Positions 5,013-59,145 of a DNA stretch of 64,000 nucleotides are shown piece after piece. The notes beneath the pieces are model-generated. The model did no database searches. It was given only the letters and a program-made list of their open reading frames with translations, and had not been told where the DNA came from. A program made the position numbers and the translations under genes. The stretch is from Vicinamibacterales bacterium (lineage in GTDB: Bacteria > Acidobacteriota > Vicinamibacteria > Vicinamibacterales > SCN-69-37): contig DATNEY010000034.1 in NCBI GenBank assembly GCA_035606665.1, positions 84,479 through 148,478 on the forward strand, read 5' to 3'. Position 1 is the first letter of the stretch, and the number at the start of each line of letters is the position of its first letter.

Positions 5013-5061
5013 CAACCTACAACCAACAATCTGCAGGTTGTCGGTTGCAGGTCGCAGGTTG
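5013..5061. repeat. CAACCTR-family palindromic element (copy 1); probable terminator between convergent rpsT and holA
   Basis: CAACCTACAACCAACAA (5013..5029) pairs with TTGTCGGTTGCAGGTCG (5038..5054) over 17 positions. The three non-Watson-Crick positions are all A opposite C on the + strand, which is G-U on the - strand RNA. Confidence 0.7.
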
Positions 5062-6647: not shown

Positions 6648-9199
6648 TTCACCACCACGCTGACCAGTCTGCCCTTCGCCACTATGACTTTGACGATCGT
6701 TTTGCCTTCCAAGTGCGGCCGGATGGCTGGCGCCGCCAGCGCCGCCGCCTCGATGTCCGGGTCGGCCGCGCTGGCATCGACGACGATGCGCCCCCGCACC
6801 TTGCCGTTGACCTGTACGGGGATCTCGACGCTCTCTTCGCGCGTCGCCGCCTCATCCCACCCCGGCCAGCCCGCCGCCACAATGCCGCCGGCGTGGCCGA
6901 GGCGCTCCCAGAGTTCCTCGGAGAGATGCGGCGCGAACGGCGACACGAGCAGGATCAGCGCCTCGATGGCCTCCCTGAGAACGGCCGCCGTCTCGGGCCG
7001 CTCCACAACCGCGGGCGGTTCATCATCGAAGCCGGATGGCCTGACACCGCGCTTGTCGGCAAAGGTACTGAGGTCGTTCACCATCTCCATCAGCGCGGAC
7101 ACCGCGGTATTGAGGTGCATCCGCGGATCAATGTCGAGCGTCACCCGGCGAATGGTGACATGCGTGCGCCTGCGGACGGCCCGCTCGTCGGCATCGAGCA
7201 CCATGTCCACGGGTGACCCTGCGTTCTTGACCGCCGGGGTCAGGTGATCGCACAGACGCCAGATACGGCCCAGGAATTTGGCCGCACCCTCGAGGCCCGT
7301 ATCGATCCACTCGACTTCCTTCTCCGGCGGCGCCACGAACATGACATACAGCCGCAGCGCGTCGGCGCCGAATCTCGCGATCATGTCGTCGGGGTCGACG
7401 ACATTGCCTTTCGACTTCGACATGACCGCGCCATGCCTCAGGACCATGCCCTGCGTCAGCAACCGCGTGAACGGCTCATCGATCTTGACGAGTCCCAGGT
7501 CGCGGAAGACCCGACTGAAGAACCGGGAATAGATCAGGTGCAGGATCGCATGCTCGACACCGCCGCTGTAGAAATCAACCGGCCCCCAGTAGGCCACCTT
7601 CGCGGCGTCGAACGGCGCCTTGTCGTTGTGGGCGTCGCAGAATCGATAGAAGTACCACGACGAATCCACGAACGTGTCCATCGTGTCGGTCTCGCGCTTC
7701 GCGGGCTTGCCGCACTTCGGACACGGCGTGTTCACGAACTCCGGGATGTGCGCGAGCGGCGAATCGCCGCGGCCGCTGAACTCCACGACCTTCGGCAGCG
7801 CGACCGGCAGCTGATCGTCCGGTACCGCCACCAGGCCGTCGTCCGGGCAGTGGACGATCGGAATCGGCGTGCCCCAGTAGCGCTGCCGTGAAACACCCCA
7901 GTCCTTGAGGCGATACTGGACAGTCGCTTGGCCGACGCCGCGCGCGGCCGCATCCGCCGTCATCTTCCGGTTCGCGTCGTCCGCCCGCAACCCATCGTAG
8001 GGACCCGAGGACACAAGGGTGCCTTCCCCATCGTAGGACTCGGTCAGCATCTCGGACGTGAGCTTGCGGTCGTCCGGCTGGATGACGACGGTGATGGGCA
8101 AGCCGTATTTGCGGGCGAACTCGAAATCCCGTGCGTCGTGGCCGGGCACACCCATGACGGCGCCGGTGCCGTATTCGCCGAGGACGAAGTTCGCCACCCA
8201 GACGGGGACCGGTTGCTTCGTGAATGGATTGATGACCGTGCGGCCGGTATCGAAACCTTCCTTTTCGACATCGCCGGTCATGCGCGCGGTGCGGTCCTGC
8301 GCACGGAATCCCGCCGCGCCCTTCCGGAGCGCCGAACCATCCGGCGACTCGGACGCAAACCGTTCGACCAGCGGATGTTCTGGCGCGATCACCACGAAGT
8401 TGGCGCCGTAGATGGTGTCGATGCGCGTGGTGAAGACTTCGATCGCTTGATCGGCGCCCCCCCCTGTACCCCGCCTGCCGCCGTCGATCGGCACAATCGG
8501 GAACGCGACCCGTGCGCCGGCGGATCGACCGATCCAGTTGCGCTGCATGGTGAGGACCTTCTCCGGCCACCCTTCCATGCGATTGAGTTCGTCCAGCAAC
8601 TCGTCAGCGTACGCGGTGATGCGCAGATTCCACTGCTCGAGCTCGCGCTGCTCGACAGTCGACCCGCAGCGCCAGCATGTGCCGTCGATGACCTGTTCGT
8701 TCGCGAGCACGGTCTGACAGCTCGGACACCAGTTGACGTTCGACCGCTTGCGGTACGCGAGGCCGCGCTCGAACATGCGCGTGAACAGCCACTGGTTCCA
8801 GCGGTAGTAGTCCGGCAGGCACGTCGCGAGCTCACGCTCCCACGCGTAGCTGATCCCGAGCCGCTGGAGCTGGCCCTTCATATGCGCGATGTTCTCGAGC
8901 GTCCACGTCTCGGGATGAACGTTGTTCTTGATCGCCGCGTTCTCGGCGGGGAGTCCGAACGCATCCCACCCGAAGGGATGCAGCACGTTGAACCCGCGCA
9001 TCCTCTTCGTGCGCGCCATGATGTCGCCGATCATGTAGTTGCGCACATGCCCGACATGCGCGTGCCCCGAGGGATACGCGAACATCTCGAGGCAATAGAA
9101 CTTCGGCTTCGACGGGTCCTCTGTCACCTCAAAGGCACGGTCGTCCACCCATCGTTTCTGCCACTTCTTCTCGATTTCCTGCGGACGATACTCAGACAT
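6644..9199 (-). CDS. leuS: Leucine--tRNA ligase
   Basis: [17 protein letters not shown]..., the HIGH-type block [13 protein letters not shown] and the KMSKS block [10 protein letters not shown]. The start is moved to ATG 9199; the 32 upstream codons in the ORF track only translate the octad repeat. Confidence 0.95.
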
Positions 9200-9200
9200 G

Positions 9201-9312
9201 GAATTGATGGATTGATGAATTGACTGATTGATGGATTGGATTGACCGATCGACGCCGGACTGACCAATCCCCTCGTCAATCCCTCGATTATCCATCGATC
9301 AATCCATCAACA
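9201..9312. repeat. GATTGAT/GATTGAC octad palindromic element (copy 1)
   Basis: Direct repeats GGATTGAT GAATTGAC TGATTGAT GGATTG GATTGACC are followed by the inverted words. The outer 13-bp stem TTGATGGATTGAT (9204..9216) / ATCAATCCATCAA (9298..9310) is perfect. Confidence 0.75.
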
Positions 9313-15500: not shown

Positions 15501-16900
15501 TCGATGTTGACCGGCCGCTTCCCGACGTGCCGCACGAAGAGCTCGCCGGCACGTCGGCTCTCACGCGGCTCGTCCAGGGCTGGATGCAGCACATCGGGCC
15601 GGTGCGAGCGGACGAACTCGCCGCACGGCTGGGATTCGACGCCGGTGACGTCCACGAGAGCATGCTGAGGCTCGAAGCGACAGGCGCGGTGCTGCGAGGG
15701 ACGTTCAGGCCGGCGATCAAGTTCGAAGTTCAAAGTTCGAAGTTGGAATGGTGTGACAGGCGACTCCTGGCACGCATCCATGCGCTGACGCTCGGCCGGC
15801 TGCGCCGTGAGATCGAGCCCGTCACGCCTGCGACGCTGATGCGATGGCTCTTCGAGTGGCAGCACATCGCACCGGGCTCTCAACTCACGGGCGAACGTGG
15901 GACGCTTGAGATCCTACGGCAGTTGCAGGGCTTCGAAACACCGGCGCGCTGGTGGGAGCCTGCCCTGCTCGCCCGGCGCATCAGAAACTACGACCCGGCG
16001 ATTCTCGATCAGCTGTGTCTCACCGGCGCGATCGGATGGGGCCGGCTGTCGCCGCATCCGGCGACGCTCGCGCTCGCCACGGACGACGGCCAGCCCGCAA
16101 CAAAGCGCCGCGTCATCCCAACCAGCGTCGCACCGGTGACGTTCTTCGTGCGCGAAGACGCGGACTGGCTGGCGCCGCGATCGGCACCGGACGCCGGCAC
16201 GCCGGGTCTCGGGCGGCCTGCCCGACTCGTCTTGGACCATCTGCAGAAGTCCGGCGCGTCGTTCTTCGCGGATCTCGTTCGTCAGACAAGATTGCTCAAG
16301 TCAGAGGTGGAAGGCGCGCTTTGGGAACTCGTGACCGCCGGCCTGGCCACGGCGGACGGCTTCGACAATTTGAGAGCACTGATCGACCCGAGACGCCGTG
16401 CCGGCCAGGGATCGGGCAAGGCTTCTCGTCCCCGCCACAGCGCGGGCCGCTGGACCGTGCTTCACGCGGGCGAGCCACCGGCGCGCGCCGCGCAGCTCGA
16501 GTCCACGTGCCGCATGCTGCTCGCGCGCTACGGCGTCGTCTTCCGCGAGTTGTTGGCGCGCGAGTCCGTGCTGCCGCCCTGGCGAGAATTGCTGGTGACG
16601 TTCCGGCGGCTTGAGGATCGAGGAGAGGTCCGTGGCGGGCGGTTCGTTTCGACGTTCGTCGGCGAGCAGTTCGCGCTGCCGGCCGCGGTCGAGTCGCTTC
16701 GCTCGCTGCGGAAGGCCGGTCCGTCCGGTCAGGTCGTGACGGTCAGCGGCGCTGACCCCTTGAATCTCGTCGGCATCATCGTCCCCGGCGATCGCGTGCC
16801 GCCGACCGGCAACCGTTTCATCCGTTTCCGTGACGGTGTCCCCGAAGACGGAATGCCAGTAGTCGGCGGCCTTCAGGCCGCCGGACGCGCGGCGGGCTGA
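12593..16900 (+). CDS. lhr: Lhr-family large ATP-dependent DEAD/DEAH helicase
   Basis: TAPTGSGKTLAAFL (motif I), IVDEIHAV (motif II) and the long C-terminal extension typical of Lhr. The start is moved to ATG 12593 (MRDPQPAT...). Confidence 0.9.
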   Translation: MRDPQPATASADALAWAHPIVREWFVARFGTPTEPQEQGWPAILEGTDTLITAPTGSGKTLAAFLACIDRLVRRALEGTLSDRTSVLYVSPLKALGNDIQKNLDGPLTEIVALARARFPSVPDIRTAVRTGDTLLPDRRAMMRRPPHILVTTPESLYILLTSASGRDMLAGIETVIVDEIHAVADDKRGAHLALSLERLDALVGRGVPRIGLSATVTPIETIAAFLAGGGRPRPHLVQIARRREFDLSIEVPPSEIAAVATHEYWDEIYDRVAALVRQHRSTLVFVNTRRVAERVCHHLGTRLGEDVVAAHHGSLSRKTRLEAEQRLKAGQLKAVVATASLELGIDVGTIDLVCQIGSPRSIAVAVQRVGRAGHWRGATPKARLFPATRDDLVEQAALVLAIRRGELDRVIVPDAPLDILSQQIVATVATGEWLEDDLFALARRAYPYRDLPRDDFDDVVAVLSEGIAARRGRYGAYLHRDRVNGRLKPRRGARLAAITGGGAIPDTALYTVVTHPEGTTVGTVDEDFAVESTGGDIFLLGNASWRIRRVTSGRVIVEDARGASPTIPFWRGEAPSRTIELSARVAEVRETVNRLAPEARPEDAAHRAPTTTAAVDWLHENCGLDSSGAEQVVDYIVAGRAVLGGVPTQARVIAERFFDEGGGMQLVLHAPFGGRINRAWGLALRKRFCRSFNFELQAAATDEGINIALAEQHSFPLGDVFRFLSVASVQDVLEQAVLDAPVFGTRFRWDASRSLALTRFRGGKRVPLPIQRIQSDDLLASVFPDAAACQENIEGDIKIPDHPLIREVMKDVLTEAMDLDGLKEVLDGISSGRIECLSVDSVTPSPFCHELLNANPYAFLDDAPLEERRARSVQMRRVLPEKALEEIGALDEDAIAEVCSQAWPDVRDADEVHDALLSLVALPELDAAAWLPMLESLATARRAARATAGGRTWWVAAERVAILRAIVPGLDVDRPLPDVPHEELAGTSALTRLVQGWMQHIGPVRADELAARLGFDAGDVHESMLRLEATGAVLRGTFRPAIKFEVQSSKLEWCDRRLLARIHALTLGRLRREIEPVTPATLMRWLFEWQHIAPGSQLTGERGTLEILRQLQGFETPARWWEPALLARRIRNYDPAILDQLCLTGAIGWGRLSPHPATLALATDDGQPATKRRVIPTSVAPVTFFVREDADWLAPRSAPDAGTPGLGRPARLVLDHLQKSGASFFADLVRQTRLLKSEVEGALWELVTAGLATADGFDNLRALIDPRRRAGQGSGKASRPRHSAGRWTVLHAGEPPARAAQLESTCRMLLARYGVVFRELLARESVLPPWRELLVTFRRLEDRGEVRGGRFVSTFVGEQFALPAAVESLRSLRKAGPSGQVVTVSGADPLNLVGIIVPGDRVPPTGNRFIRFRDGVPEDGMPVVGGLQAAGRAAG
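15719..15748. repeat. TTCGAAC-family heptad repeat lying in frame inside lhr
   Basis: AAGTTCGAAGTTCAAAGTTCGAAGTTGGAA encodes KFEVQSSKLE. Its reverse complement shares 18-20 nt identical strings with the intergenic copies at 21819..21850 and 23891..23912. Confidence 0.8.
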
Positions 16901-17677: not shown

Positions 17678-17760
17678 ACAACCTTAGGAAACCTACAACC
17701 GACAACCTACAACCAACAAATCAACCGAACTGCAGGTTGCAGGTTGTCGGTTGCAGGTTG
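17678..17760. repeat. CAACCTR-family palindromic element (copy 2)
   Basis: AACCTACAACCGACAACCTACAACC (17690..17714) pairs with GGTTGCAGGTTGTCGGTTGCAGGTT (17735..17759) over 25 positions. The only two exceptions are A opposite C on the + strand. Confidence 0.8.
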
Positions 17761-17832
17761 CTCTGGAACTAATCGCACATCGCCGGTGTCTTTCTAGGCA
17801 GCACCACGCTCGCTCTCCACGGGAGGTCAGCG

Positions 17833-18240
17833 ATGAAGCCGCTGCGCAGCTACTCGGACATGAACGTCATGCCGCTGATCGACGTGCTGCTCGTTCTCCT
17901 CGTGATCTTTCTCGCGGCCCTGCCGCTCGCCCAGGCGGGCCTGGACGTGGAGGTTCCGCCGGTCGCCGAGCAGCGGCCCGGCAATGAACCCACCTCGGAC
18001 ATCGTCGCGACCTATTCAGCGAACCGCCAGCTCGAAATCAACCGCCGACCTGTCGACATGGCGGCGGCCGACGCGGAGTTCAGGAGTATCTACCGCGACC
18101 GCCGGAACAAAACGCTCTACGTCATCGGCGACGGCACGGTGACCTATGGCGAGATCGCCCGGATCATCGACGCCGCCACGGGCGCGGGCGTGACACGGAT
18201 CGGGATTGTGACTGAAGAGATGAGACGAGCAGCTCGTTAG
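17833..18240 (+). CDS. exbD: Biopolymer transport protein ExbD/TolR
   Basis: MNVMPLIDVLLVLLVIFL...TLYVIGDGTVTYGEIARIIDAATGAGVTRIGIV is the canonical ExbD/TolR pattern. GGGAGG Shine-Dalgarno. Confidence 0.85.
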   Translation: MKPLRSYSDMNVMPLIDVLLVLLVIFLAALPLAQAGLDVEVPPVAEQRPGNEPTSDIVATYSANRQLEINRRPVDMAAADAEFRSIYRDRRNKTLYVIGDGTVTYGEIARIIDAATGAGVTRIGIVTEEMRRAAR

Positions 18241-18315
18241 CAACCTACAACCAACAAGCGAGTTCACGGAAACGGCTCCGTGCCCCATTGCAGGCTGCAG
18301 GTTGTAGGTTGCAGG
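18241..18315. repeat. CAACCTR-family palindromic element (copy 3); between convergent exbD and etfA
   Basis: CAACCTACAACC (18241..18252) and GGTTGTAGGTTG (18300..18311) form a perfect 12-bp stem. An inner hairpin CACGGA-AACGGC-TCCGTG lies at 18265..18282. Confidence 0.75.
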
Positions 18316-19275
18316 TTACTGTTTGAGTGCCGAGATCATCGCCGGGACGATCTCGAACAGATCCCCCGCGATGCCGTAGTCGGCGATTTCGAAGATCGGC
18401 GCCTCGGGATCCTTGTTGATGGCCACGATCGTCCGCGCGCCTTTCATGCCGACGACGTGCTGGATGGCGCCGGAAATGCCCAGTGCCAGATAGAGCTTCG
18501 GCGCGACGGTCTGGCCGGAGCTGCCGATCTGGCGCTCCATCGGCAGCCAGCCTGAATCGCAAATCGGACGCGACGCAGCCAGTTCGGCCCCAAGCGAGGC
18601 GGCAAGCTCGCGCGCGATGGCGATGTGTTCCTCGGACTTGATGCCCCGGCCGACCGACACGATGCGTTCCGCCTGCGACAGGTCGACGGCCTGCTTCGCT
18701 TCGCGGAAGGGTGCTTCGGGCTTCTGACGGATGGAGGCGGGATCGACGGAGGCGGCCACGGATCGAACGGGCGCAGGCTGCGCGCCCCTCTTCGCGGCAT
18801 CGCCACGGAATGCGCCAATCTGGAACGTCACGAGATGCGGCGCCGGCCCTTCGAGGGCGATGTCGGCGTTGACGCGGCCCTGGAAGATCGGCCTGACGAA
18901 GAGACGCGCCGACGAGTCGCCCTTGGTGCCGATGCAGTCGGCCGCCAGCGCCCGATCGATGCGCGCGGCGAGCCGGGGAGCGTAGTCACGAGTCTGGTAC
19001 GTGTGGGAGAACACGACGTGCGACGGCGACTCGGCGGCGATGAGGCCGGCGAGCGCCTGCACGAAACCGTCCGGCGTGTAGACCGCCAGGCCCTCGTGCT
19101 CGAGCGAGATGACCTCGGCGACGTCCGCCGCCGCGAGCTCGGCAGCGACTGCGCCGACACCTGCGCCGGCCACGGCGATCTTCACGGGGCCGCCAAGCTG
19201 CTGGGCCGCGGCCACGGCCTCCCACGACGCCCGGTTCAGAACGCCGTCACGCTGTTCCGCGATCACGAGGACCAT
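18316..19275 (-). CDS. etfA: Electron transfer flavoprotein alpha subunit
   Basis: [21 protein letters not shown]... and C-terminal ...[37 protein letters not shown]. The start is moved to ATG 19275, which overlaps the etfB TGA. Confidence 0.9.
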
Positions 19276-20057: not shown

Positions 20058-20070
20058 AAAACCTCGATCA

Positions 20071-20296
20071 GTCCAGAGTCCATAGTCCACAGTCCAGGGT
20101 TCGTCCAAGGTCCAAGGTCCGTTCATGGTCCAAGGTTCGTCCAAGGTCCAAGGTTCGTTCATGGTCCAAGGTTCGTCCAAGGTCCAGAGTTCGTCCAAGG
20201 TCCAGAGTTCGTCCAGGGTCCAGAGCCGTTGGACCATGAACGAACCTCGGACCTTGGACGAACTCTGGACCTTGGACGAACTCTGGACTGTGGACC
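20071..20296. repeat. Tandem 18-nt repeat array with inverted arm (quasi-palindrome)
   Basis: Seven consecutive 18-mers occupy 20100..20225 (consensus TTCGTCCAAGGTCCAAGG; variants TTCGTTCATGGTCCAAGG and ...GGTCCAGAG). About 3.5 units follow in reverse-complement orientation (20229..20296). Confidence 0.9.
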
Positions 20297-20308
20297 CCGG
20301 ACGCGGGA

Positions 20309-21547
20309 CTATTCATATCTCTTCATCAGCAACGTCCCGTTCGTCCCGCCGAACCCGAACGAGTTCGAGAGCGCGCACTCGATCGCCATGGGACGCTTCG
20401 CGTTCGCGGCGTAGTCGAGATCGCAGGCCGGATCGGGCGCGTCGAGATTCATGGTCGGCGGCGCCACTTGGTGACGGATGGCGAGCGCCGTGATGCCGGC
20501 CTCGAGACCGCCGGCGGCGCCGAGCAGATGCCCGGTCATCGACTTCGTCGACGACATCACGAGCTTGCCGGCGTGGTCGCCGAACGTCGTCTTCACGGCA
20601 AGCGTCTCGGTCGGGTCATTGATGGGCGTCGATGTTCCGTGCGCGTTGATGTAGTGCACCTGATCGGGCCGCACACCGCCCTTGCGGAGCGCCATGCGCA
20701 TCGAGCGGACGGCGCCGTTCGCGTCCTCGGGCTGCGAGGTCAGATGAAAGGCGTCTCCAGACAGGCCGTAGCCTGCGATCTCGGCGTAGATCGTGGCGCC
20801 GCGCGCCTTGGCGAACTCGAGCTCCTCGAGCACCAGGATGCCGGCGCCCTCGCCGCAGACGAAGCCGTCGCGGTCCTTGTCGAACGGCCGGCTCGCCCGC
20901 TGGGGCTCGTCGTTCCGTGTGGACAACGCGCGCATGGCGGCGAAGCCGCCGATGCCCATCGGCGTGATCGACGCCTCGGATCCGCCTGCAATCATCACGT
21001 CGGCATCGTCGCGCTTGATGATCTCGTAGGCCTCGCCGACCGAGTGCGCGGACGCCGTGCAGGCGGTGCACGTCGCGAGATTAGGACCGCGCGCGCCGAA
21101 ACGGATCGAGACCTGGCCGGCCGCCAGGTTGATGATCGTCGCTGGTATGAAGAACGGAGAGATGCGGCGCGGCCCGCTCTTGAGGAATTCCTCGTGCTCG
21201 CGCTCGATCGTGGAGAACCCGCCGATGCCGGACGCGATGAACACTCCGACGCGATCCGAGAACTCCGGCGCGACCTCGAGCCCGGAATCGTCCATGGCCA
21301 TCTGGGAGGCGGCGATCGCGTACTGGATGAAGGCGTCCATCTTCTTGACGTCCTTCTTGTCGACCCAGTTGAGGGGGTCGAACCCGCGCACTTCACCGGC
21401 GATCCGCGCCGCGAAACCCGAGGCGTCGAAGTGCGTAATCGGCCCGATGCCGCTCTTCCCCGCCAGCAATCCGTTCCAGGTCTCGCCCGTGCTCAACCCC
21501 ACCGACGACAGCAGACCGACGCCGGTGATGACTACTCGCCTGGCCAA
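20309..21547 (-). CDS. fabF: Beta-ketoacyl-ACP synthase II
   Basis: RRVVITGVGLLSSVG, the active-site context ATCTACTASAHS, and HGTSTP / NSFGFGGTN at the C-terminus. TTG start with GGAGGA Shine-Dalgarno. Confidence 0.95.
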   Translation of the reverse strand: MARRVVITGVGLLSSVGLSTGETWNGLLAGKSGIGPITHFDASGFAARIAGEVRGFDPLNWVDKKDVKKMDAFIQYAIAASQMAMDDSGLEVAPEFSDRVGVFIASGIGGFSTIEREHEEFLKSGPRRISPFFIPATIINLAAGQVSIRFGARGPNLATCTACTASAHSVGEAYEIIKRDDADVMIAGGSEASITPMGIGGFAAMRALSTRNDEPQRASRPFDKDRDGFVCGEGAGILVLEELEFAKARGATIYAEIAGYGLSGDAFHLTSQPEDANGAVRSMRMALRKGGVRPDQVHYINAHGTSTPINDPTETLAVKTTFGDHAGKLVMSSTKSMTGHLLGAAGGLEAGITALAIRHQVAPPTMNLDAPDPACDLDYAANAKRPMAIECALSNSFGFGGTNGTLLMKRYE

Positions 21548-21818: not shown

Positions 21819-21850
21819 CTTTCGAACTTCAGACTTTGAACTTCGAACTT
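21819..21850. repeat. TTCGAAC-family heptad direct repeat (fabG-acpP spacer)
   Basis: TTCGAAC TTCAGAC TTTGAAC TTCGAAC TT: four and a half phased heptads. Confidence 0.8.
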
Positions 21851-21852
21851 CC

Positions 21853-23625: not shown

Positions 23626-23690
23626 GACATTTGGACATGTGGACATCTGACGGCAATGTCCTCATGGCAAATGTCCAAATGACAAATGAC
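23626..23690. repeat. GACATNTG octad palindromic element (rpmF-plsX spacer)
   Basis: GACATTTG GACATGTG GACATCTG, then the inverted words. The stem CATTTGGACAT (23628..23638) / ATGTCCAAATG (23671..23681) is perfect; an inner stem GGACAT/ATGTCC is also present. Confidence 0.8.
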
Positions 23691-23882: not shown

Positions 23883-23912
23883 CAACCTACGTCAACTTCG
23901 AACTTTGAACTT
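23883..23912. repeat. Composite spacer: one CAACCTA word plus TTCGAAC-family heptads
   Basis: CAACCTAC GTCAACTTCGAACTTTGAACTT. The last bases overlap the yceD stop codon. Confidence 0.6.
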
Positions 23913-30178: not shown

Positions 30179-30205
30179 CGAACCCGAAACCCTGCGCCCT
30201 GAACC
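30179..30205. repeat. Solo GAACCCT/GAACCCG heptad element
   Basis: CGAACCCGAAACCCTGCGCCCTGAACC resembles the outer part of the inverted-repeat arm at 41578..41612. Confidence 0.5.
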
Positions 30206-38387: not shown

Positions 38388-39644
38388 CTACTCGGCCTCC
38401 GACATGTCTTCGAGCCGGCGCGACGGCCGCCTGAGAATGACGCCCCGCCGGGCAGACGTGATGAAGTTCACGAGGTAGCGGACTTCGGGCACCGCGAGGC
38501 TCGGATCGCGGTCGATGAGCTCGAGCGCGCGGCTCGTGTTGTGCTGAATGAGCTGCCGGTACGCGCGGCGCAGCTTGTCGATCGTCTCGGTCGAGAATCC
38601 GCGCCGTTTGAGGCCAATCGCATTGAGGCCGTAGATGCGCGCGCGGTTGCCGACCGTCTTGGCGAACGGCAGCGCGTCGCGCGTCACGACGGTGTAACCG
38701 CCGATGAACGCGTGCTGGCCGATTCGGCAGAACTGATGAACGCCTGAATAGGCGCTGATCGTGGCGAAGTCCTCCACGTGGACGTGACCGCCCAGCGTCG
38801 CGGCGTTGCCGAAGATGGTCGAATTGCCCACATGGCAGTCGTGCGCGACGTGCGCGTAGGCCATGAACAGGTTGTGATCGCCGATGGTCGTGAGCGCGCC
38901 GCCGCCGACCGTGCCGCGATGGAGCGTCACGAACTCGCGGAACATGTTGTGGTGGCCGATACGAAGGCGCGTCGGCTCACCGCGGTACTTCAAGTCCTGC
39001 GGCGCAAGGCCGATCGACGCGAGCGGTGAAATGTCGTTGTGGTCGCCGATCTCCGTCCAGCCCGCAACGACGCTCGACGCGCCGATGCGGCAGTGCCGGC
39101 CGATGACGACGTGCGGCCCGATGGTGACGTAGGGACCGACCACGGTACCCGCGCCAATCCGAGCGTCGGGATGCACGATGGCCGTCGGGTGAATCTCCGG
39201 AGCGGCGTCCTCCGCGGTCTCCAGCGCAAGCACGAGCTCGGCTTCCGCCACGACCTGTCCGCCGACCGAAGCCACCGCACGCGCCCGGGCGATCTGTCCG
39301 CGCCTGGCGCCCATCGTCACTTCGAGCTCGAGCCGATCGCCCGGCACGACCTGGCGGCGGAACTTCGCGTTGTCCACGCCTCGGAGCCACGCGCTGCCAG
39401 GCGGCTGCAGTTCCAGCCGGCGCTCGCCGAACAGCAGCACGCCCGCAAGCTGTGTCAGCGATTCGATCATGAGGACGCCCGGCATCAGCGGCGTGCCGGG
39501 AAAGTGTCCCTGAAAGAATTCCTCGTTCACTGTGACGTTCTTCGCGGCAACGATGCGGCGGCCTGGTTCGTGGTGCGTGATGACGTCGACGAGGACCGAG
39601 GGATACCGGTAGGACAGCCGTTCGAGGCCGGGCAACATGCGCAT
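38388..39644 (-). CDS. Fused 3-hydroxyacyl-ACP dehydratase FabZ / UDP-GlcNAc acyltransferase LpxA
   Basis: The N-terminal ~150 aa (YRYPSVLVDVI...AAKNVTVNEEFFQGHFPGTPLMPGVLMIESLTQ) are FabZ. After the linker ETAEDAAPE comes IHPTAIVHPDARIGAGTVVGPYVTIG... with hexapeptide repeats and ...FAKTVGNRARIYGLNAIGLKRRGF, which is LpxA. It is one uninterrupted frame. ATG 39644 or 39638. Confidence 0.85.
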   Translation of the reverse strand: MRMLPGLERLSYRYPSVLVDVITHHEPGRRIVAAKNVTVNEEFFQGHFPGTPLMPGVLMIESLTQLAGVLLFGERRLELQPPGSAWLRGVDNAKFRRQVVPGDRLELEVTMGARRGQIARARAVASVGGQVVAEAELVLALETAEDAAPEIHPTAIVHPDARIGAGTVVGPYVTIGPHVVIGRHCRIGASSVVAGWTEIGDHNDISPLASIGLAPQDLKYRGEPTRLRIGHHNMFREFVTLHRGTVGGGALTTIGDHNLFMAYAHVAHDCHVGNSTIFGNAATLGGHVHVEDFATISAYSGVHQFCRIGQHAFIGGYTVVTRDALPFAKTVGNRARIYGLNAIGLKRRGFSTETIDKLRRAYRQLIQHNTSRALELIDRDPSLAVPEVRYLVNFITSARRGVILRRPSRRLEDMSEAE

Positions 39645-39682
39645 TACGACCCTAGACAATACACGGAAAACGTACAGCAAAA

Positions 39683-39731
39683 GACCCCGGGCGTCGTTCT
39701 GAACGCTCTCCTCAGAACGACGCCCGGGGTC
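39683..39731 (-). terminator. Intrinsic terminator downstream of skp
   Basis: Perfect 20-bp stem GACCCCGGGCGTCGTTCTGA / TCAGAACGACGCCCGGGGTC with a 9-nt loop, 7 nt after the skp stop. On the - strand RNA it is followed by UUUUGCUGUACGUUUU. Confidence 0.85.
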
Positions 39732-39738
39732 GTATGTC

Positions 39739-40368
39739 CTACTTGATCGTTGCGTCGAGGCGCTTGACGATCTCGGCCGATAGATCCAGGCCGGCGTGCG
39801 CCGCGGCGATGTTGGAGTTGTCACCAAGCGCGAAGATGATCCAGAGGCCGCGCTCCTCGCGCAGTTTCTCGACGATCGGAAGCACCTGCTGCTGGAAAGT
39901 CGCGAGCAGCTCCTGATTGAGCTGATCGATCTGCACCTGCGCATCCTGCTGCTTGAACTGCGCTTCGCGCTGCAGCTTGTCGAGCTCCTTGGCCATGTTG
40001 TTGAACACGGCCTCCGAGACGACGCCCTGCTGCGTCTTCATGCGGTCCTGCAGCGCCTGGATTTCCTTGTTCTTCGCGGCGAGGTCCGCCGAGAGCTTGT
40101 CGTTGAGCACTTGCATCGCATCGCGACCCTTTTTGCCCAGCTTGGACTGCTGGACGACGGCCTGCAGGTCGATGAACGCGACCTTGGCCTCTGCGGGGAA
40201 CGGTACGGGTGTCGGCGTTGGTGTTGGCGCCGGCGTCGCGGGCTTCTGTCCCGCCGGATTGGTGGCGGGCGGTGGGGTCGTCGGCGGCGGCGCCGTCTGC
40301 GCCATCGCGCTTCCAGCCACCAGCACTGCCATCGCGGCAAAAGCGATCGTCTGTCGTTTCATACTCAT
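39739..40368 (-). CDS. skp: OmpH/Skp-family periplasmic chaperone
   Basis: Signal peptide MSMKRQTIAFAAMAVLVAGSAMAQ, a Pro/Thr-rich stretch, then a coiled-coil (VAFIDLQAVVQQSKLGKKG...LQREAQFKQQDAQ...). The start is moved to ATG 40368. Confidence 0.8.
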   Translation of the reverse strand: MSMKRQTIAFAAMAVLVAGSAMAQTAPPPTTPPPATNPAGQKPATPAPTPTPTPVPFPAEAKVAFIDLQAVVQQSKLGKKGRDAMQVLNDKLSADLAAKNKEIQALQDRMKTQQGVVSEAVFNNMAKELDKLQREAQFKQQDAQVQIDQLNQELLATFQQQVLPIVEKLREERGLWIIFALGDNSNIAAAHAGLDLSAEIVKRLDATIK

Positions 40369-40507
40369 CGGATTCAGCACCTTGGTCGGTGTCCCGGCCC
40401 CTTCTGTCGGTCTCCCGGCCGCCACACGGACATCTGAGTCTATCAGAGCAGACGCCTGAGCCATCCCGATAGGCGGGAAACAAGGCATAATCGCCCGAGG
40501 AGAGTGC

Positions 40508-40942
40508 ATGCCGAGTCCGCTGTTGCGCCGTTTTGCCCTGATTTCCACCCTGGCCCTCGTGGCTGCGGGTGCGTCCGCCTGCGACGGTGGCGGCACGACC
40601 ACACCGACGACACCGACTACCCCGACTACGACCGTCACTGAGACCTTCGCGGGCAGCATCACGACCAACGGCGCCGCCAGCTTCACGTTCCCGACCGGCG
40701 CGGCCGGCTCTGTCACGGCCACGCTGCGCACCATCACACCCGTCAGCACCATTCAGCTGAGTCTGGCCCTGGGCACGTGGAACGGCATCTCCTGCCAGGT
40801 TGTGCTGACCAACGACCGAGCGACGTCCGGCGGCAGCGTCACCGGCAACGTCTCTGGTTCCGGAACGCTGTGCGTGCGGATTGCGGATATCGGACAGGTC
40901 GCGGGTACCAGCGGATTCGAGATCGTTGTCGTGCATCCCTGA
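40508..40942 (+). CDS. Small putative lipoprotein, unknown function
   Basis: MPSPLLRRFALISTLALVAAGASAC (signal plus Cys), a TTTPTTPTTPTTT linker, and a beta-rich C-terminal part. GAGGAGAG Shine-Dalgarno. It is on the opposite strand to its neighbours. Confidence 0.55.
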   Translation: MPSPLLRRFALISTLALVAAGASACDGGGTTTPTTPTTPTTTVTETFAGSITTNGAASFTFPTGAAGSVTATLRTITPVSTIQLSLALGTWNGISCQVVLTNDRATSGGSVTGNVSGSGTLCVRIADIGQVAGTSGFEIVVVHP

Positions 40943-40955
40943 TCCCTTCGGGATC
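40941..40955 (+). terminator. Small stem-loop at the lipoprotein gene stop codon
   Basis: GATCCC-TTC-GGGATC overlaps the TGA. There is no U tract, so its function is uncertain. Confidence 0.25.
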
Positions 40956-41008
40956 GGTTCAGGGTTCAGGGTGTCGGGTTCCGGGTTCGCTTGTCTGGTT
41001 CCGGGTTC
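40956..41008. repeat. Left inverted-repeat arm of the four-helix-bundle cassette
   Basis: GGTTCAG GGTTCAG GGTGTCG GGTTCCG GGTTCGC TTGTCTG GTTCCGG GTTC: phased heptads that match the reverse complement of 41532..41612. Confidence 0.85.
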
Positions 41009-41127
41009 ATTTGCTTTTCTCCAAACACTGGTTGGAGTTTCTCCACACTCGAGAGATCGTCTGAAGCGGCATTAGCGGAGATTCCACAAGACGCGAGTGG
41101 CACGAGCCATGCTCCTCTTGCGTGCGC

Positions 41128-41511
41128 ATGGCAGGTGCGCGCAACTACGATGAGCTGGATGCGTGGAAACTCAGCGACGCCGTTCGAGTTCGCATCTATG
41201 AGATCTGCAAGTCCCCCAGGTTTCGATCGCACCTCCGGCTGCGAGAGCAGCTGACAGACGCCGCCGACTCGGCATGCTCGAACATCGCCGAGGGATTCGG
41301 ACGCTACTACCCCAAAGAGTTCGCCAGATTCCTCAAGATCTCACGCGGGTCTCTGGCAGAGATCGCAGACAGACTTCGAAGCGCGGTGCTCGCCGGGATT
41401 GTGAAGGAAACTGACGTTGACGACATCGTCGCACTCACGCACCGAGCGCGTGGAGCGTGCACAAGGCTGATCAAGTATCTGGAAGGAGCCGACCCGCCCG
41501 GCCGCGCCTAG
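41128..41511 (+). CDS. Four-helix-bundle protein (23S rRNA intervening-sequence protein / Avd-like family)
   Basis: YDELDAWKLSDAVRVRIYEICKSPRF...LREQLTDAADSACSNIAEGFGRYYPKEFARFLKISRGSLAEIADRL fits the family pattern as I remember it (F..L.VW..A..L...IY......E...L..Q..RAA.S...NIAEG..R....E...FL.IA.GS..E). ATG 41128 or GTG 41122. Confidence 0.8.
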   Translation: MAGARNYDELDAWKLSDAVRVRIYEICKSPRFRSHLRLREQLTDAADSACSNIAEGFGRYYPKEFARFLKISRGSLAEIADRLRSAVLAGIVKETDVDDIVALTHRARGACTRLIKYLEGADPPGRA

Positions 41512-41531
41512 ATCCGCGGAACGCGAGGTAC

Positions 41532-41612
41532 GAACCGGGAACCCAGAACCGGGAACCGGGAACCGGGAACCAGACAAGCGAACCCGGCACCCTGAACCCT
41601 GAACCCTGAACC
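41532..41612. repeat. Right inverted-repeat arm of the four-helix-bundle cassette
   Basis: The reverse complement is GGTTCAGGGTTCAGGGTTCAGGGTGCCGGGTTCGCTTGTCTGGTTCCCGGTTCCCGGTTCCCGGTTCTGGGTTCCCGGTTC. It differs from the left arm mainly in heptad copy number. Confidence 0.85.
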
Positions 41613-41621
41613 GCCGAAGGC

Positions 41622-44306
41622 TTAGAACGTCGTGCCGACGGCGAAGCGGAAGGTGAACCGCTGAGCGAAGAGACCGTTGTTGTTGAACACGCCGCGGCGT
41701 GATGGATTCCACGCGCCGATCAGCCGGAAGGGCACGTTCAACACCGGCATGAAGAACCGTATTTCGAAGCCCGCGGACGTCTTGAACGCCGGCGTGCGTC
41801 CGATGACGCGCACGGTCGGCGTGGTACTGGTCCCGGGCGGCGTCAGGGTCACCAGCGCGAATGGATCCGAAAGGAAGGGCGGATCGGGCGTCACCGTCTC
41901 CGTGATGTCTTCCTTCCAGACAAGACGCTGGCCGATGTCCCTGACCTGGCCCGCGTCGTAGAAGCCCAGCACGCGCACGGGCCCGCCGACGTTGAAATAG
42001 ATCTCACCGTTGAAGAGCAGCGACTTGTTGCCGCCGGTGACGATGCCGGAGATCGGGTCGCGCGGACCCACCGAGCGGATGTCGAAGCCACGGACGCTGT
42101 ATTCGCCGCCGAGGAACACCTTCTCGAAAATCGGCAGCGTCGTCGTACTGCCGTACGGGCGAATCCACTGTCCCTCGCCGCGAAGCCCGATCGACACGCG
42201 GCGCGAGATGAACGTCAGCGGCTTGTAGAAAATGGCCTCCGACCGCACCTGGACGTACTCGGTGTTGCCGCCGACACCGGCGAAATCCACGCCCGTCGTG
42301 AAGCGCATGCCGTCGTCCGGGAAGATCGGCTGGTTGATCGTGTTGTACACCACGGACGGCGTGATCTTGCTGACGCGGCGCTGGCCGCCCTGATCGAGCA
42401 GCAGCGATGACCGAAGGATGGGGCTCGCCGCCAGCACCGCGGGATTCAGGTACGCCTCGTTGATGTCGTAGACCTTGATGCGCTCGTAGCTGTACGTCGT
42501 GAACAGCCGCATGTAGTCCGCGAGCGGGAACCCGAACACGAGGTTCGTGCCCTTCGCGTCCTGCGTGTACTGGAAGTCGTAGATGAACTGGCGCGCGTAT
42601 ACGTCGGTGCCGATGGTGATCGGCCGGTCGAAGAGATACGGCTCGCTGAACGACACCTGGTACTGCCGCGCGCGCGAGCCCTTCTGCAGGTTGACGCCGA
42701 ACGTCTCGCCGCGGCCGAGGAAGTTCGATGTCTGGAACGACAGCTGGCCGAAGAAGCCGTCGAACTGCGACACGCCCGCGCCGAACGAGATCTGGTTGCG
42801 GTTCTGCTCCTGGAACTTGAGCTTGATGTCGACGAGGCCTTCCTGGCCCGGCGTCGGCACCACGCTCATCTCGTCTTCCTTGCCCTCGAGCGGTTTGAAG
42901 TAGCCGAGCTGGTTCAGCCGGCGGATGCTCTGCTTGAGCGCGTCCGTGTTGAACACGCCGCCCTCGACGACCCGCATCTCGCGCCGGGCGACGTTGTCGT
43001 GCGTCGTCGTATTGCCGGCGAACGTGATGCGGTTGACGTAGTACTGCTTGCCCTCGAGCATCCGAACCGTGACATCGACGACGGGCGGGGGCTTCTCGGG
43101 GCCGATGGGCAAACCGGTGTTGGGGTCGATGCCCCGCGGCGACAGATCGACGTCCGGCGCCGCCTGCCAGAAGCCGAGGGCGCCGTAGAGATCACGCGCC
43201 TTCTCCAGGCCTTTGCTGATCTTCTGGTAGTTGTAATAGTCGCCCTCTTTGAGCTTGAACATCGCCCTGAGGGGCTCGGTCTTGAGCGAGGTGTTGTCCG
43301 CGATGTTGAACGAGCCGATCTTGTAGCGCTCGCCTTCGTCGACCGGAATCCGCAGACGAATCCATCGGTTCCTGCCGTCCTTCGTGTCGGTGACGATCTC
43401 GACCTGGGGCTGGCCGACGCGCGCGCGCACGTAGCCCTTGTTCAGATAGAACACCTGCACCTTGTCGGCGTCCTCGGCGAACTTCGCTTCGAGGTACGTC
43501 CCGCTCGACGTGAGGAAGCTGTACCAGTTCTTCGGTTTGTTGTCCTTCAGCTGGCCGCGCAGGGCGCTGTCGCTGAACGCGGTGTTGCCGTCGAACTGGA
43601 CGTCACGAATCTTGTACTTCGGGCCCTGATCGATCTCGAACGTCAAGTGGATCAACTTCGGCCCGGAGGGCAGCGGCGTGAGCTTCGCTTCGATCTTGAC
43701 GTCGTTGTGCCCCTTCTCGGAGTACACCTCGCGAATGATGCCCTTGACGCGGCGAATCGTCGCCTCGTCCACGAAGGAATCCAGGTTGACGTGAATGTTC
43801 TTTTCCTTGAGCTTGTCCTCGATCTTCGATGTCTCGACCGACGACTTCGACCCGGGCGCGGCGACGTAGTCGACCGCCTTCACGCGAGCGCGCTCTTCGA
43901 TGTGGAACACGACGTGCTTCGCCGCGACGCCATTCGGGAACGGCTCATCGATGACTTCAATCCAGAGGTTGTCCAGGAACCCGGTGCGCCACAGGTTCCA
44001 GAAGTCGGCCTTGACGGCGTCTTCCGTGAATGGCGCCCACCGATCCTGGCTGGGCGCCGAGCTGACCGTCTTGATGTAGTACGAATAAGTCTGCTGATCG
44101 ACGATGGTCTCGTTCACCGGATGCGCGATGATGTGCATGCAGCTCTGAAACAGGACCGGCGAATTGGCGGGCGGGAGGTTGGGCTTGCCATCCTTCACCG
44201 GCGCGGCGCAGGGCGGCGCCTGAGCCGCCGCGGGCACGGCCCAGCCGGCGGCAGCTGCAGCGGTCACACCCGCCACGATCAGGCGTCGAAATCGCGAAAG
44301 CATCAT
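41622..44306 (-). CDS. bamA: Outer membrane protein assembly factor BamA
   Basis: 894 aa with a signal peptide, repeated POTRA-like modules, and a C-terminal beta-barrel ending ...FRFAVGTTF (aromatic terminal residue). Confidence 0.92.
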   Translation of the reverse strand: MMLSRFRRLIVAGVTAAAAAGWAVPAAAQAPPCAAPVKDGKPNLPPANSPVLFQSCMHIIAHPVNETIVDQQTYSYYIKTVSSAPSQDRWAPFTEDAVKADFWNLWRTGFLDNLWIEVIDEPFPNGVAAKHVVFHIEERARVKAVDYVAAPGSKSSVETSKIEDKLKEKNIHVNLDSFVDEATIRRVKGIIREVYSEKGHNDVKIEAKLTPLPSGPKLIHLTFEIDQGPKYKIRDVQFDGNTAFSDSALRGQLKDNKPKNWYSFLTSSGTYLEAKFAEDADKVQVFYLNKGYVRARVGQPQVEIVTDTKDGRNRWIRLRIPVDEGERYKIGSFNIADNTSLKTEPLRAMFKLKEGDYYNYQKISKGLEKARDLYGALGFWQAAPDVDLSPRGIDPNTGLPIGPEKPPPVVDVTVRMLEGKQYYVNRITFAGNTTTHDNVARREMRVVEGGVFNTDALKQSIRRLNQLGYFKPLEGKEDEMSVVPTPGQEGLVDIKLKFQEQNRNQISFGAGVSQFDGFFGQLSFQTSNFLGRGETFGVNLQKGSRARQYQVSFSEPYLFDRPITIGTDVYARQFIYDFQYTQDAKGTNLVFGFPLADYMRLFTTYSYERIKVYDINEAYLNPAVLAASPILRSSLLLDQGGQRRVSKITPSVVYNTINQPIFPDDGMRFTTGVDFAGVGGNTEYVQVRSEAIFYKPLTFISRRVSIGLRGEGQWIRPYGSTTTLPIFEKVFLGGEYSVRGFDIRSVGPRDPISGIVTGGNKSLLFNGEIYFNVGGPVRVLGFYDAGQVRDIGQRLVWKEDITETVTPDPPFLSDPFALVTLTPPGTSTTPTVRVIGRTPAFKTSAGFEIRFFMPVLNVPFRLIGAWNPSRRGVFNNNGLFAQRFTFRFAVGTTF

Positions 44307-59083: not shown

Positions 59084-59145
59084 ATCGACCGATTGACCGA
59101 TTGATGGATTGACCAATCCGGCAATTCGTCAATCTGTCAATTCGT
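59084..59145. repeat. GATTGACC octad palindromic element (copy 3)
   Basis: ATCGACC GATTGACC GATTGATG GATTGACC AATCC, then CAATTCGT CAATCTGT CAATTCGT (inverted words). It overlaps the stop and last codons of the 59137 gene. Confidence 0.7.

Follow-up and report, generated by a model that had tools for sequence, protein, structure and literature searches.

In a 64,000-nucleotide stretch of a soil-metagenome contig (DATNEY010000034.1, Vicinamibacterales bacterium; called the window here, with positions counted from its first letter) a gene for a four-helix-bundle (4HB) protein is enclosed by long inverted arrays of tandem heptads. Gene and arms together form a discrete, repeat-bounded and self-contained expression cassette for the 4HB protein, and the recurrence of this layout in several phyla points to a kind of gene cassette that is widespread and apparently not yet described. 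We consider it reasonably probable that the unit is a cassette of the type known as an intervening sequence (IVS) of 23S rRNA, here located outside rRNA and probably mobile, with the arms as its cis-acting ends. An earlier reading made from the letters alone (the sequence-only reading) had proposed a self-contained, possibly mobile, IVS-like cassette, and empty sites in relatives, homologous arms at unrelated sites and a layout common to much of the family now speak for this. None of the four outcomes that it had named as counting against the idea was found: the protein matches the family models, related arms occur elsewhere, orthologous sites are empty and the stem is more stable than shuffled sequence.

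The region 40700-41900 was examined directly at the sequence level. The whole cassette (40943..41621, plus strand, ~675 bp) takes up the space between the stop codon, TGA (40940-40942, plus strand), of an open reading frame (ORF) of 144 aa, ORF144, and the bamA stop codon (41622-41624, minus strand), and the repeat-bounded unit occupies the gap between these convergent stops with at most 3 nt to spare on each side. The left arm (40955..41008, plus strand) consists of G-rich GGTTC(A/C)G heptads in tandem, among them an irregular unit of 13 nt, GGTTCGCTTGTCT; the right arm (41532..41613, plus strand) is built of C-rich GAACC-type heptads, and its part at 41560-41613 mirrors the left arm. The inverted repeat formed by 40955-41008 and 41560-41613 is 54 nt long and 91% complementary, its halves lying 551 nt apart, and the right arm has a surplus of about four GAACCGG heptads (41532-41559) without a partner on the left. 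Because the irregular unit is mirrored in both, the arms are true mirror copies in register and not two independent arrays. Written in general form they are tandem GGTTCNG and CNGAACC heptads whose G-rich strand runs inward from either side. The heptad pattern GGTTCNGGGTTCNGGGT, allowing up to two mismatches, is matched 11 times in the window against 0.11 expected, with 10 of the matches in the two arms and the other at 30189-30205. Of 54 non-overlapping ORFs in the window, the 4HB ORF alone has an inverted-repeat score of at least 32 around it. When 40940-41625 is folded as RNA the arms pair and the energy is -317.8 kcal/mol, as against -261.9 ± 7.4 for shuffled sequences (z = -7.6). The bracketing of the gene by long heptad-built inverted repeats, as described in the sequence-only reading, is thus real, and the fold that it suggested as a check gives a stem more stable than the shuffled controls. 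Its further claim, that CCTTCGG (40945..40951, plus strand, 7 nt) and its complement CCGAAGG (41613..41619, plus strand, ending 2 nt before the bamA stop) prolong the pairing, also stands, the extension crossing a 3-nt bulge. CCTTCGG, which may belong either to the cassette or to the host, is at the same time part of a small local hairpin, GATCCC-TTC-GGGATC, straight after the ORF144 stop.

The gene (41128..41511, plus strand) encodes a protein of 127 aa. It had been assigned to the four-helix-bundle family TIGR02436/PF05635, and both hidden Markov models recognise it far above their cutoffs (PF05635, E = 6.6e-22, 78.2 bits, cutoff 33.8; TIGR02436, E = 7e-22, 77.7 bits, cutoff 24), with no other Pfam domain in the protein. 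To our knowledge this is a large family with solved structures, whose function is not known outside the diversity-generating retroelements (DGR). The start is placed at the ATG at 41128 since the N-terminus, MAG(A/V)R, is conserved in 38 homologues. An AlphaFold model of the monomer, made with the 38 homologues, is a four-helix bundle with a mean predicted local distance difference test score (pLDDT) of 92.9 and helices at residues 8-27, 36-57, 62-88 and 94-120. By sequence the only relative in the PDB is 2GSC (XCC0516, Xanthomonas campestris; phmmer E = 7.6e-10). The top Foldseek matches are again 2GSC, with a template-modelling (TM) score of 0.77-0.86, then 2RLD (BT_0352, 'S23 ribosomal protein family'; TM 0.75-0.88) and the DGR protein Avd. 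The motif S-x3-N-I-A-E-G is kept, and S48, N52 and E55 are invariant in the 38 homologues. S-x3-N-x2-E is part of the published motif GxxRxxxSxxxNxxE (PMC3936711), the upstream GxxR part of which is not obvious in the clade of the window protein. The G + C content of third codon positions (GC3) in the 4HB ORF is 0.71, compared with a median of 0.82 for the genes of the window, a difference consistent with a foreign or recently arrived gene.

The first line of evidence for an inserted unit comes from relatives in which the site is empty. The comparison was made with the three nearest BamA homologues on usable contigs (L095-L097; 79%, 78% and 72% identical). All three keep the synteny ClpB-BamA-ORF144-Skp-FabZ/LpxA and have no 4HB gene, and the distance from the bamA stop to the ORF144 stop is 23, 32 and 120 nt. 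As the three closest syntenic relatives lack it, the ~675 bp is a discrete unit of presence and absence; the search for empty skp-bamA sites that the sequence-only reading had called for therefore returned three of them. The short empty spacers of 23-32 nt contain no hairpin. A contig scan with BamA returned one 3.2-kb contig (87% identical, uncultured Solibacteraceae), which ends short of the junction. Judged by its BamA homologues, the window comes from Vicinamibacterales-like Acidobacteriota. At the empty junctions we also observed two heptads each (L095 6671-6693, GAACTTC GAACTTA; L096 6659-6690, GTTGAAC GTTGAAC), which could be a footprint, a landing pad or a coincidence.

The second line of evidence is that related cassettes have carried homologous arms to unrelated sites. 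Two loci recovered from other samples, L102 and L103, encode proteins 67-68% identical to the 4HB protein of the window and have different host neighbours (a threonine-dehydratase-like gene and a glucokinase-like gene). In a three-way alignment the similarity of these two loci and the window starts at the first GGTTC heptad. In L103 the homology stops at the last GAACCG and the irregular unit is shared with the window; the contig of L102 stops 3 nt past the last GAACCG, so that its homology boundary was assessed on the left side only. The host flanks of the three, as far as they can be compared, are unrelated. Of the further cassettes, those in L083 and L088 are found between a fis-like gene and the promoter region of groES, and that in L089 has a macB-like gene on either side; in all, the cassettes occupy five different host contexts. 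The outermost units, GGTTCAGGG...CCCTGAACC, are conserved in four of the five close cassettes. The cassettes in L083 (1990-2620) and L088 (1980-2640) occupy a common site, between the stop of the fis-like gene and the region of the groES promoter with its controlling inverted repeat of chaperone expression (CIRCE). Their host flanks are co-oriented and 83-86% identical, the similarity running into the arms, whereas the 4HB core is in the opposite orientation, which means that the interior was inverted between the arms or, alternatively, that two insertions took place at this site.

Duplicated, decayed and gene-less forms were also found. The locus L061 (1752-5024) contains, in a span of 3.3 kb, three elements with the 9-nt unit CGTTCGGAT: an intact cassette, an internally deleted cassette and a solo array. 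The second cassette has the same promoter, full arms and the first ~55 codons, about two thirds of the gene being deleted; the two cassettes are 1 kb apart, and the solo array is placed between two paralogous methyltransferase genes. In L037 a gene-less, G-first hairpin of the 8-nt arm unit lies 1.5 kb from the cassette. The soil metagenome from which the window comes contains several further contigs of the same depth (~21x) with arms at least 90% alike, and one of these links left arm to right arm through a loop of 26 nt. On a Nostoc plasmid the arm unit AGGGAAC is repeated as solo arrays at three more places within 50 kb. The solo relatives of the arm that had been noticed in the window at 1308 and 30179 both exist (1308-1344 and 30179-30205); they are short, C-rich arrays of GAACC type beside the stops of minus-strand genes. 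The arms are inherited along with spacer and gene at unrelated sites, and they outlast the decay of the gene.

The layout is not peculiar to the close relatives of the window cassette. A scan of metagenome contigs with the homologue alignment gave 80 loci, in which the arms were scored by aligning the upstream 350 nt locally against the reverse-complemented downstream 350 nt and taking the best alignment; both flanks were present for 57 of the 4HB genes, and 62 ORFs from the same loci served as controls. A score of at least 40 was obtained for 40 of the 57 4HB genes (median 64) and for 0 of the 62 controls (median 21). The units have periods of mostly 9, 7 and 8 nt, and the arms have a median length of 64 nt. 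In 50 of the 52 repeat-positive loci the first arm is the G-rich one, and since the structure is symmetric the G-rich strand reads inward from both sides. In 37 of the 52 the left arm contains three or more copies of GGTTC, with linkers that differ in length and sequence between the cores, and other cores are GGTGC, CGTTC, GGTCC and GTGCC. The downstream neighbour is convergent on the 4HB gene at 19 of the 27 loci with both neighbours, and at 11 of the 27 the cassette is antisense between two co-directional host genes.

Inverted heptad arrays also flank 4HB genes on four finished plasmids, with upstream and downstream units GGGAAAA and TTTTCCC in Geminocystis, GGGAACA and TGTTCCC in Nostoc edaphicum, GGGTGTA and TACACCC in Calothrix, and AAGGTTC and GAACCTT in Riemerella. 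The layout is therefore found across three phyla or more and does not stem from an artefact of assembly. A palindromic chimera made by the metagenome assembler could be suspected in the window because an independent assembly of the same run has contigs that break in the arms; however, the window has unique host sequence on both sides and a unique gene inside, and the same architecture is present in more than 40 independent assemblies as well as on the four plasmids, and we consider the probability of an artefact to be negligible. The cassette sequence is present in three sequencing runs, all of DNA (soil or metagenome). In the soil run the read depth at the arms is 6-20x that of the flanks which, together with the contig breaks, indicates that arm-like sequence is highly repeated in the soil metagenome and that the gene family is fragmented in assemblies. 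Most of the near 4HB homologues are on contigs of ~1 kb, and unitig-level (Logan) contigs stop inside the arms. On the Nostoc edaphicum plasmid pNe_5 (L105, 150001-200000) the 4HB gene lies within a conjugation cluster, right after an ORF annotated 'TraM recognition domain'; the coupling-protein gene there is apparently split, an unannotated gap of ~1.9 kb extends from 175751 to 177631, and the plasmid holds many other heptamer arrays.

Between the left arm and the gene there is a predicted promoter of the sigma-54 type with -24 and -12 elements, TGGCACGAGCCATGCT (41098..41113, plus strand; GG at 41099-41100, GC at 41111-41112), the single match to the sigma-54 promoter with at most one mismatch in the 64-kb window. 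When the spacer from left arm to ATG is aligned in six divergent cassettes, the sole invariant block is GGC-N8-TGC, which is the GG-N10-GC signature typical of sigma-54 promoters. With a weighted consensus searched within 80 nt upstream of the start, 71 of the 80 loci (~89%) score at least 16, as against 9% of random segments, and in most loci the motif ends 11-15 nt before the start. Positions outside the selection also fit the consensus YTGGCACG-N4-TTGCW (C4 in 54, A5 in 47 and T13 in all 67 of 67 loci). With the usual spacing the predicted transcription start is at ~41124, about 4 nt before the ATG, giving a nearly leaderless mRNA; the absence of a Shine-Dalgarno sequence fits this. A consensus scan of 40400-41800 found no sigma-70 promoter and no intrinsic terminator. 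We infer that the internal sigma-54 promoter drives the 4HB gene. As this promoter sits inside the arms, the gene's own mRNA would lack the left arm and release of the message by RNase III would be unnecessary for its expression. About 75 bp upstream of the -24 element the spacer contains a further element (41016..41045, plus strand) with two copies of TTTCTCCA (41016-41023 and 41038-41045) and a palindrome formed by CTCCAA (41019-41024) and TTGGAG (41032-41037). It is also present in L088 and L102 and is a candidate site for an activator (enhancer-binding protein).

A promoter inside the arms, with the left arm at the usual range of an enhancer (median distance from arm end to ATG, 104 nt), would also suit a resident, non-mobile regulatory locus in which the arms are arrays of activator or repressor sites on the two sides, or a bidirectional insulator or terminator that shields the convergent host genes, and from which the relatives have lost the gene. 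The position of the cassette exactly between two convergent stops agrees with this, as do the lack of a mobility gene and of a target duplication discussed below. Such a locus is nevertheless unlikely in our view, given that related cassettes have homologous arms at unrelated sites, that duplicated and decayed copies occur on one contig and gene-less hairpins of the same unit exist, and that cyanobacterial 4HB genes carry the same arms, while cyanobacteria, as far as we know, have no sigma-54. The distance between arm and promoter also ranges from ~0 to 180 nt, for which reason we do not favour the left arm as a sigma-54 enhancer acting from a fixed distance either.

The arms might instead matter only in RNA, in line with the RNase III processing that the sequence-only reading had named as one possibility: the cassette would be transcribed from outside, RNase III would cut the stem, and the cut would free or stabilise the 4HB mRNA and separate the host messages. 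The predicted stem is indeed very stable, RNase III excision is established for the homologous rRNA IVS (PMC4990558), and ORF144 runs in the same direction and stops 3 nt short of the stem, which makes read-through of both arms plausible. We nevertheless rate an element of RNA only as decidedly improbable, since the internal promoter would start the mRNA 3' of the left arm and the mismatches between the arms have no sense-strand signature. In 52 loci there are 459 such mismatches; as sense RNA, 97 of them would read G·U and 107 A·C, the latter being G·U in the antisense RNA only. With such symmetry nothing indicates that pairing was selected for in the sense transcript alone. Arm complementarity is either kept at the level of DNA or relevant in transcripts of both directions.

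If, as we prefer, the unit is a mobile cassette, the arms would act as its cis-acting ends, and their complementarity would be kept by pairing-based copying of the DNA, whether by fold-back, template switching or gene conversion. Movement would probably take place by DNA hairpins or template switching. A host transcript crossing the cassette in either direction would be expected to fold into a long stem which, by analogy with the rRNA IVS, RNase III would cut, so that the insertion could be tolerated. Expression would be switched on by a sigma-54 activator. The GGTTC core with its variable linker of 2-4 nt (period 7-9) would present a row of candidate sites for an oligomeric protein, and the constancy of the core beside the variability of the linker would speak for recognition of a specific sequence and not for pairing alone. 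Avd is a pentameric, basic, nucleic-acid-associated ring. Because relatives of the cassette's own protein form homopentameric rings, that protein would be the most economical candidate for binding the arrays.

Several observations weigh against a mobile cassette. No target-site duplication was found at the borders of the cassettes in the window, L102, L103, L083 and L088, and the Pfam gene list of the neighbours (~10 kb) contains no reverse transcriptase, transposase or recombinase. The Rfam scan of the whole 64-kb window gave no match, so there is no rRNA in it; the statement of the sequence-only reading that no recombinase, reverse transcriptase or rRNA context is visible is thus accurate. 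Neither rpoN nor an activator gene emerged from a search of the window for GAFTGA or RpoN-box motifs. The nearest cassettes known share only 67-69% protein identity, nothing indicates recent transposition, and arms were not detectable for ~30% of the 4HB genes sampled. The presence and absence among relatives could equally be due to loss, and the empty sites contain two GAAC/GTTC-type heptads. Finally, the 64 kb hold at least 12 other short-unit arrays or hairpins of varied units, mostly at convergent junctions, and part of the process that makes the arms may, judging from these, be the host's and not the cassette's.

The heptads at the empty sites and the other arrays of the window would also fit a host that makes hairpins by slippage and fold-back at gene 3' ends, one of which captured a 4HB gene with its promoter in its loop, much as an IVS occupies the loop of an rRNA helix; the arms themselves would then not be mobile. 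Xanthomonas, with ~186 GGGAATC arrays of which ~70 are in convergent inverted pairs (PMC4692102), shows such arrays on a large scale. However, the empty sites of 23-32 nt lack any hairpin, the arms are homologous across sites down to the irregular unit and are unlike the neighbouring host arrays, the GGTTC core is common to 37 of 52 loci in many organisms, and the arms go with the gene in three phyla. We therefore regard a host-made hairpin as quite unlikely. As the main explanation we also reject insertion of the gene into the loop of a hairpin that the host already had at this site, on account of the hairpin-free empty sites and the homology of the arms between sites.

Of the known systems the rRNA IVS is the closest to the mobile cassette that we favour. 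IVS carrying S23p/4HB genes are known in 23S rRNA of Coxiella burnetii, Leptospira, Xanthomonas and Brucella, and that of Coxiella, 428 nt long and located in helix 45, is closed by a terminal stem of 28 bp, a substrate of RNase III, and contains an S23p ORF and, at its 5' end where RNase III cuts, three tandem heptamers (GACAGAT) of variable copy number; older proposals cited there hold that the IVS is or was mobile (PMC4990558). The window unit shares with them the protein family, the stem-forming terminal inverted repeats around an ORF, the size (~0.4-0.75 kb) and the tandem heptamers, which in Coxiella are at the 5' end and vary in copy number; the IVS, too, has been viewed as a selfish and possibly mobile element. 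The window unit differs in lying between protein genes and not in helix 25 or 45 of 23S rRNA, in having arms of 54-82 nt that consist almost wholly of tandem units, and in its predicted sigma-54 promoter and nearly leaderless ORF, whereas the IVS ORF relies on rRNA transcription.

The resemblance to DGR is confined to the protein. Avd (PDB 4DWL, 8UB7) has the same fold and belongs to the same superfamily (Foldseek TM 0.73-0.86), but the identity is ~15-19%, and near the window gene there is no reverse transcriptase; no pair of template and variable repeats was seen, the only direct repeats found being those within the arms, and the repeats here are inverted arrays in place of a direct template/variable pair. 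Repetitive extragenic palindromes (REP) and their associated tyrosine transposases (RAYT) offer a likeness in layout, namely a lone small gene between inverted short repeats, and a possible further likeness in gene-less copies of the repeat scattered between genes at their 3' ends. Yet the window protein is a four-helix bundle without a known catalytic fold and not a Y1 (HUH) transposase, and the 4HB arms are tandem 7-9-nt units and not single imperfect palindromes. With miniature inverted-repeat transposable elements and insertion sequences the cassette has in common a discrete insert, terminal inverted repeats with conserved outermost units, gene-less derivatives, presence or absence at orthologous sites and the occupation of different sites. 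It differs from them in its arms of tandem units and in having neither transposase nor target-site duplication, although a transposase acting in trans on the window cassette is conceivable.

The arms also resemble the heptamer arrays of Xanthomonas (GGGAATC) and Nostoc (GGGGA(C/T)T) described by Rehm et al. (PMC4692102) and the short tandemly repeated repetitive (STRR) sequences of heterocystous cyanobacteria, which are G-rich on one strand, mostly intergenic and often arranged as G-first inverted pairs. In the papers on these arrays they are treated as simple-sequence or G-quadruplex repeats and are not linked to 4HB genes; the window arms have only runs of GG. According to a supplementary table, array no. 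15 of X. campestris lies directly at the start of XCC0516 (PMC4692102), the gene of the 4HB protein solved as 2GSC, a connection not drawn in that paper. Genes of the family, named 23S_rRNA_IVP, have been seen inserted in cas operons (PMC3936711). In the full-text literature, of which our coverage is incomplete so that a prior description is possible, we did not find inverted tandem-unit arms described around 4HB genes outside rRNA.

A bolder extension, which we put forward tentatively and think doubtful at present, is that 4HB (PF05635) proteins are the cognate partners of the tandem heptad-type arrays that abound in intergenic DNA of many bacteria. It would cover the hairpins of the window, the GGGAATC arrays of Xanthomonas and the heptamer (STRR-like) arrays of Nostoc. 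The cassette would then be the 'autonomous' copy and its protein a pentameric ring in which each subunit takes a single unit of 7-9 nt. Arrays and hairpins elsewhere would be derivatives that lack the gene or would serve as landing sites, and an rRNA intervening sequence would be such an element trapped in rRNA. If true, this would amount to a new selfish system of protein and repeat, comparable to REP/RAYT but with an unrelated protein, and it would offer the arrays of Xanthomonas and cyanobacteria, so far unexplained, a possible protein partner.

The origin of ORF-bearing 23S rRNA IVS has been open since the early 1990s. The ORF-in-stem unit exists here as a free-standing cassette with polar arms of tandem units, and this turns a curiosity of rRNA into a defined genetic element with testable parts, which in Acidobacteria include a conserved putative sigma-54 promoter and a nearly leaderless mRNA. 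Such a cassette would account for 4HB genes inside cas and bamA-skp operons and upstream of groES. A caution is that, with contigs breaking in the arms, the 4HB family is under-assembled in metagenomes.

On the minus strand around the cassette the gene order is clpB, bamA (44306-41622, minus strand), skp and, next, an ORF encoding FabZ and LpxA domains. Between bamA and skp there are two genes on the plus strand, the 4HB gene and ORF144 (40508-40942). The cassette had been described as lying between skp and bamA on the opposite strand; this is right for the interval but not for direct adjacency, as ORF144 separates the unit from skp. ORF144 has a lipoprotein-like signal peptide and a TPTTPTTPTT linker and no Pfam match, and it is kept at the same antisense position between bamA and skp in the three relatives L095-L097. 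The FabZ (FabA-like) and LpxA (hexapeptide acyltransferase) domains are in one ORF 3' of skp (window 38388-39944), an arrangement found also in L095 (8160-9410) and L097 (8036-9346). A tblastn search of the window found no second 4HB gene.

The other arrays of the window with units of 7-11 nt are at 1308-1344, 5032-5061, 9198-9305, 15719-15748, 17690-17761, 18241-18317, 21821-21851, 23626-23690, 23894-23912, 30179-30205 and 59087-59145. Their units include GGTTGCA, GTTCGAA, GGATTGA, GACATNTG and the GAACC type, and nearly all touch gene 3' ends; the array at 15719 is within a long reading frame. The arrays may be related to 4HB cassettes, though without the gene, or reflect an independent feature of the host. 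A hairpin of ~240 nt at 20070-20310, made of GTCCAAG and GGTTCGTCCAAG units, has 82-nt arms that are 83% complementary and a short loop; it contains no ORF and ends at the stop of a minus-strand gene. An exbD-like ORF (17833-18240) is flanked by GGTTGCA/GGTTGTA heptad hairpins (17690-18317), with a G-rich arm upstream of it and a C-rich one downstream, which is the polarity also seen at the 4HB gene.

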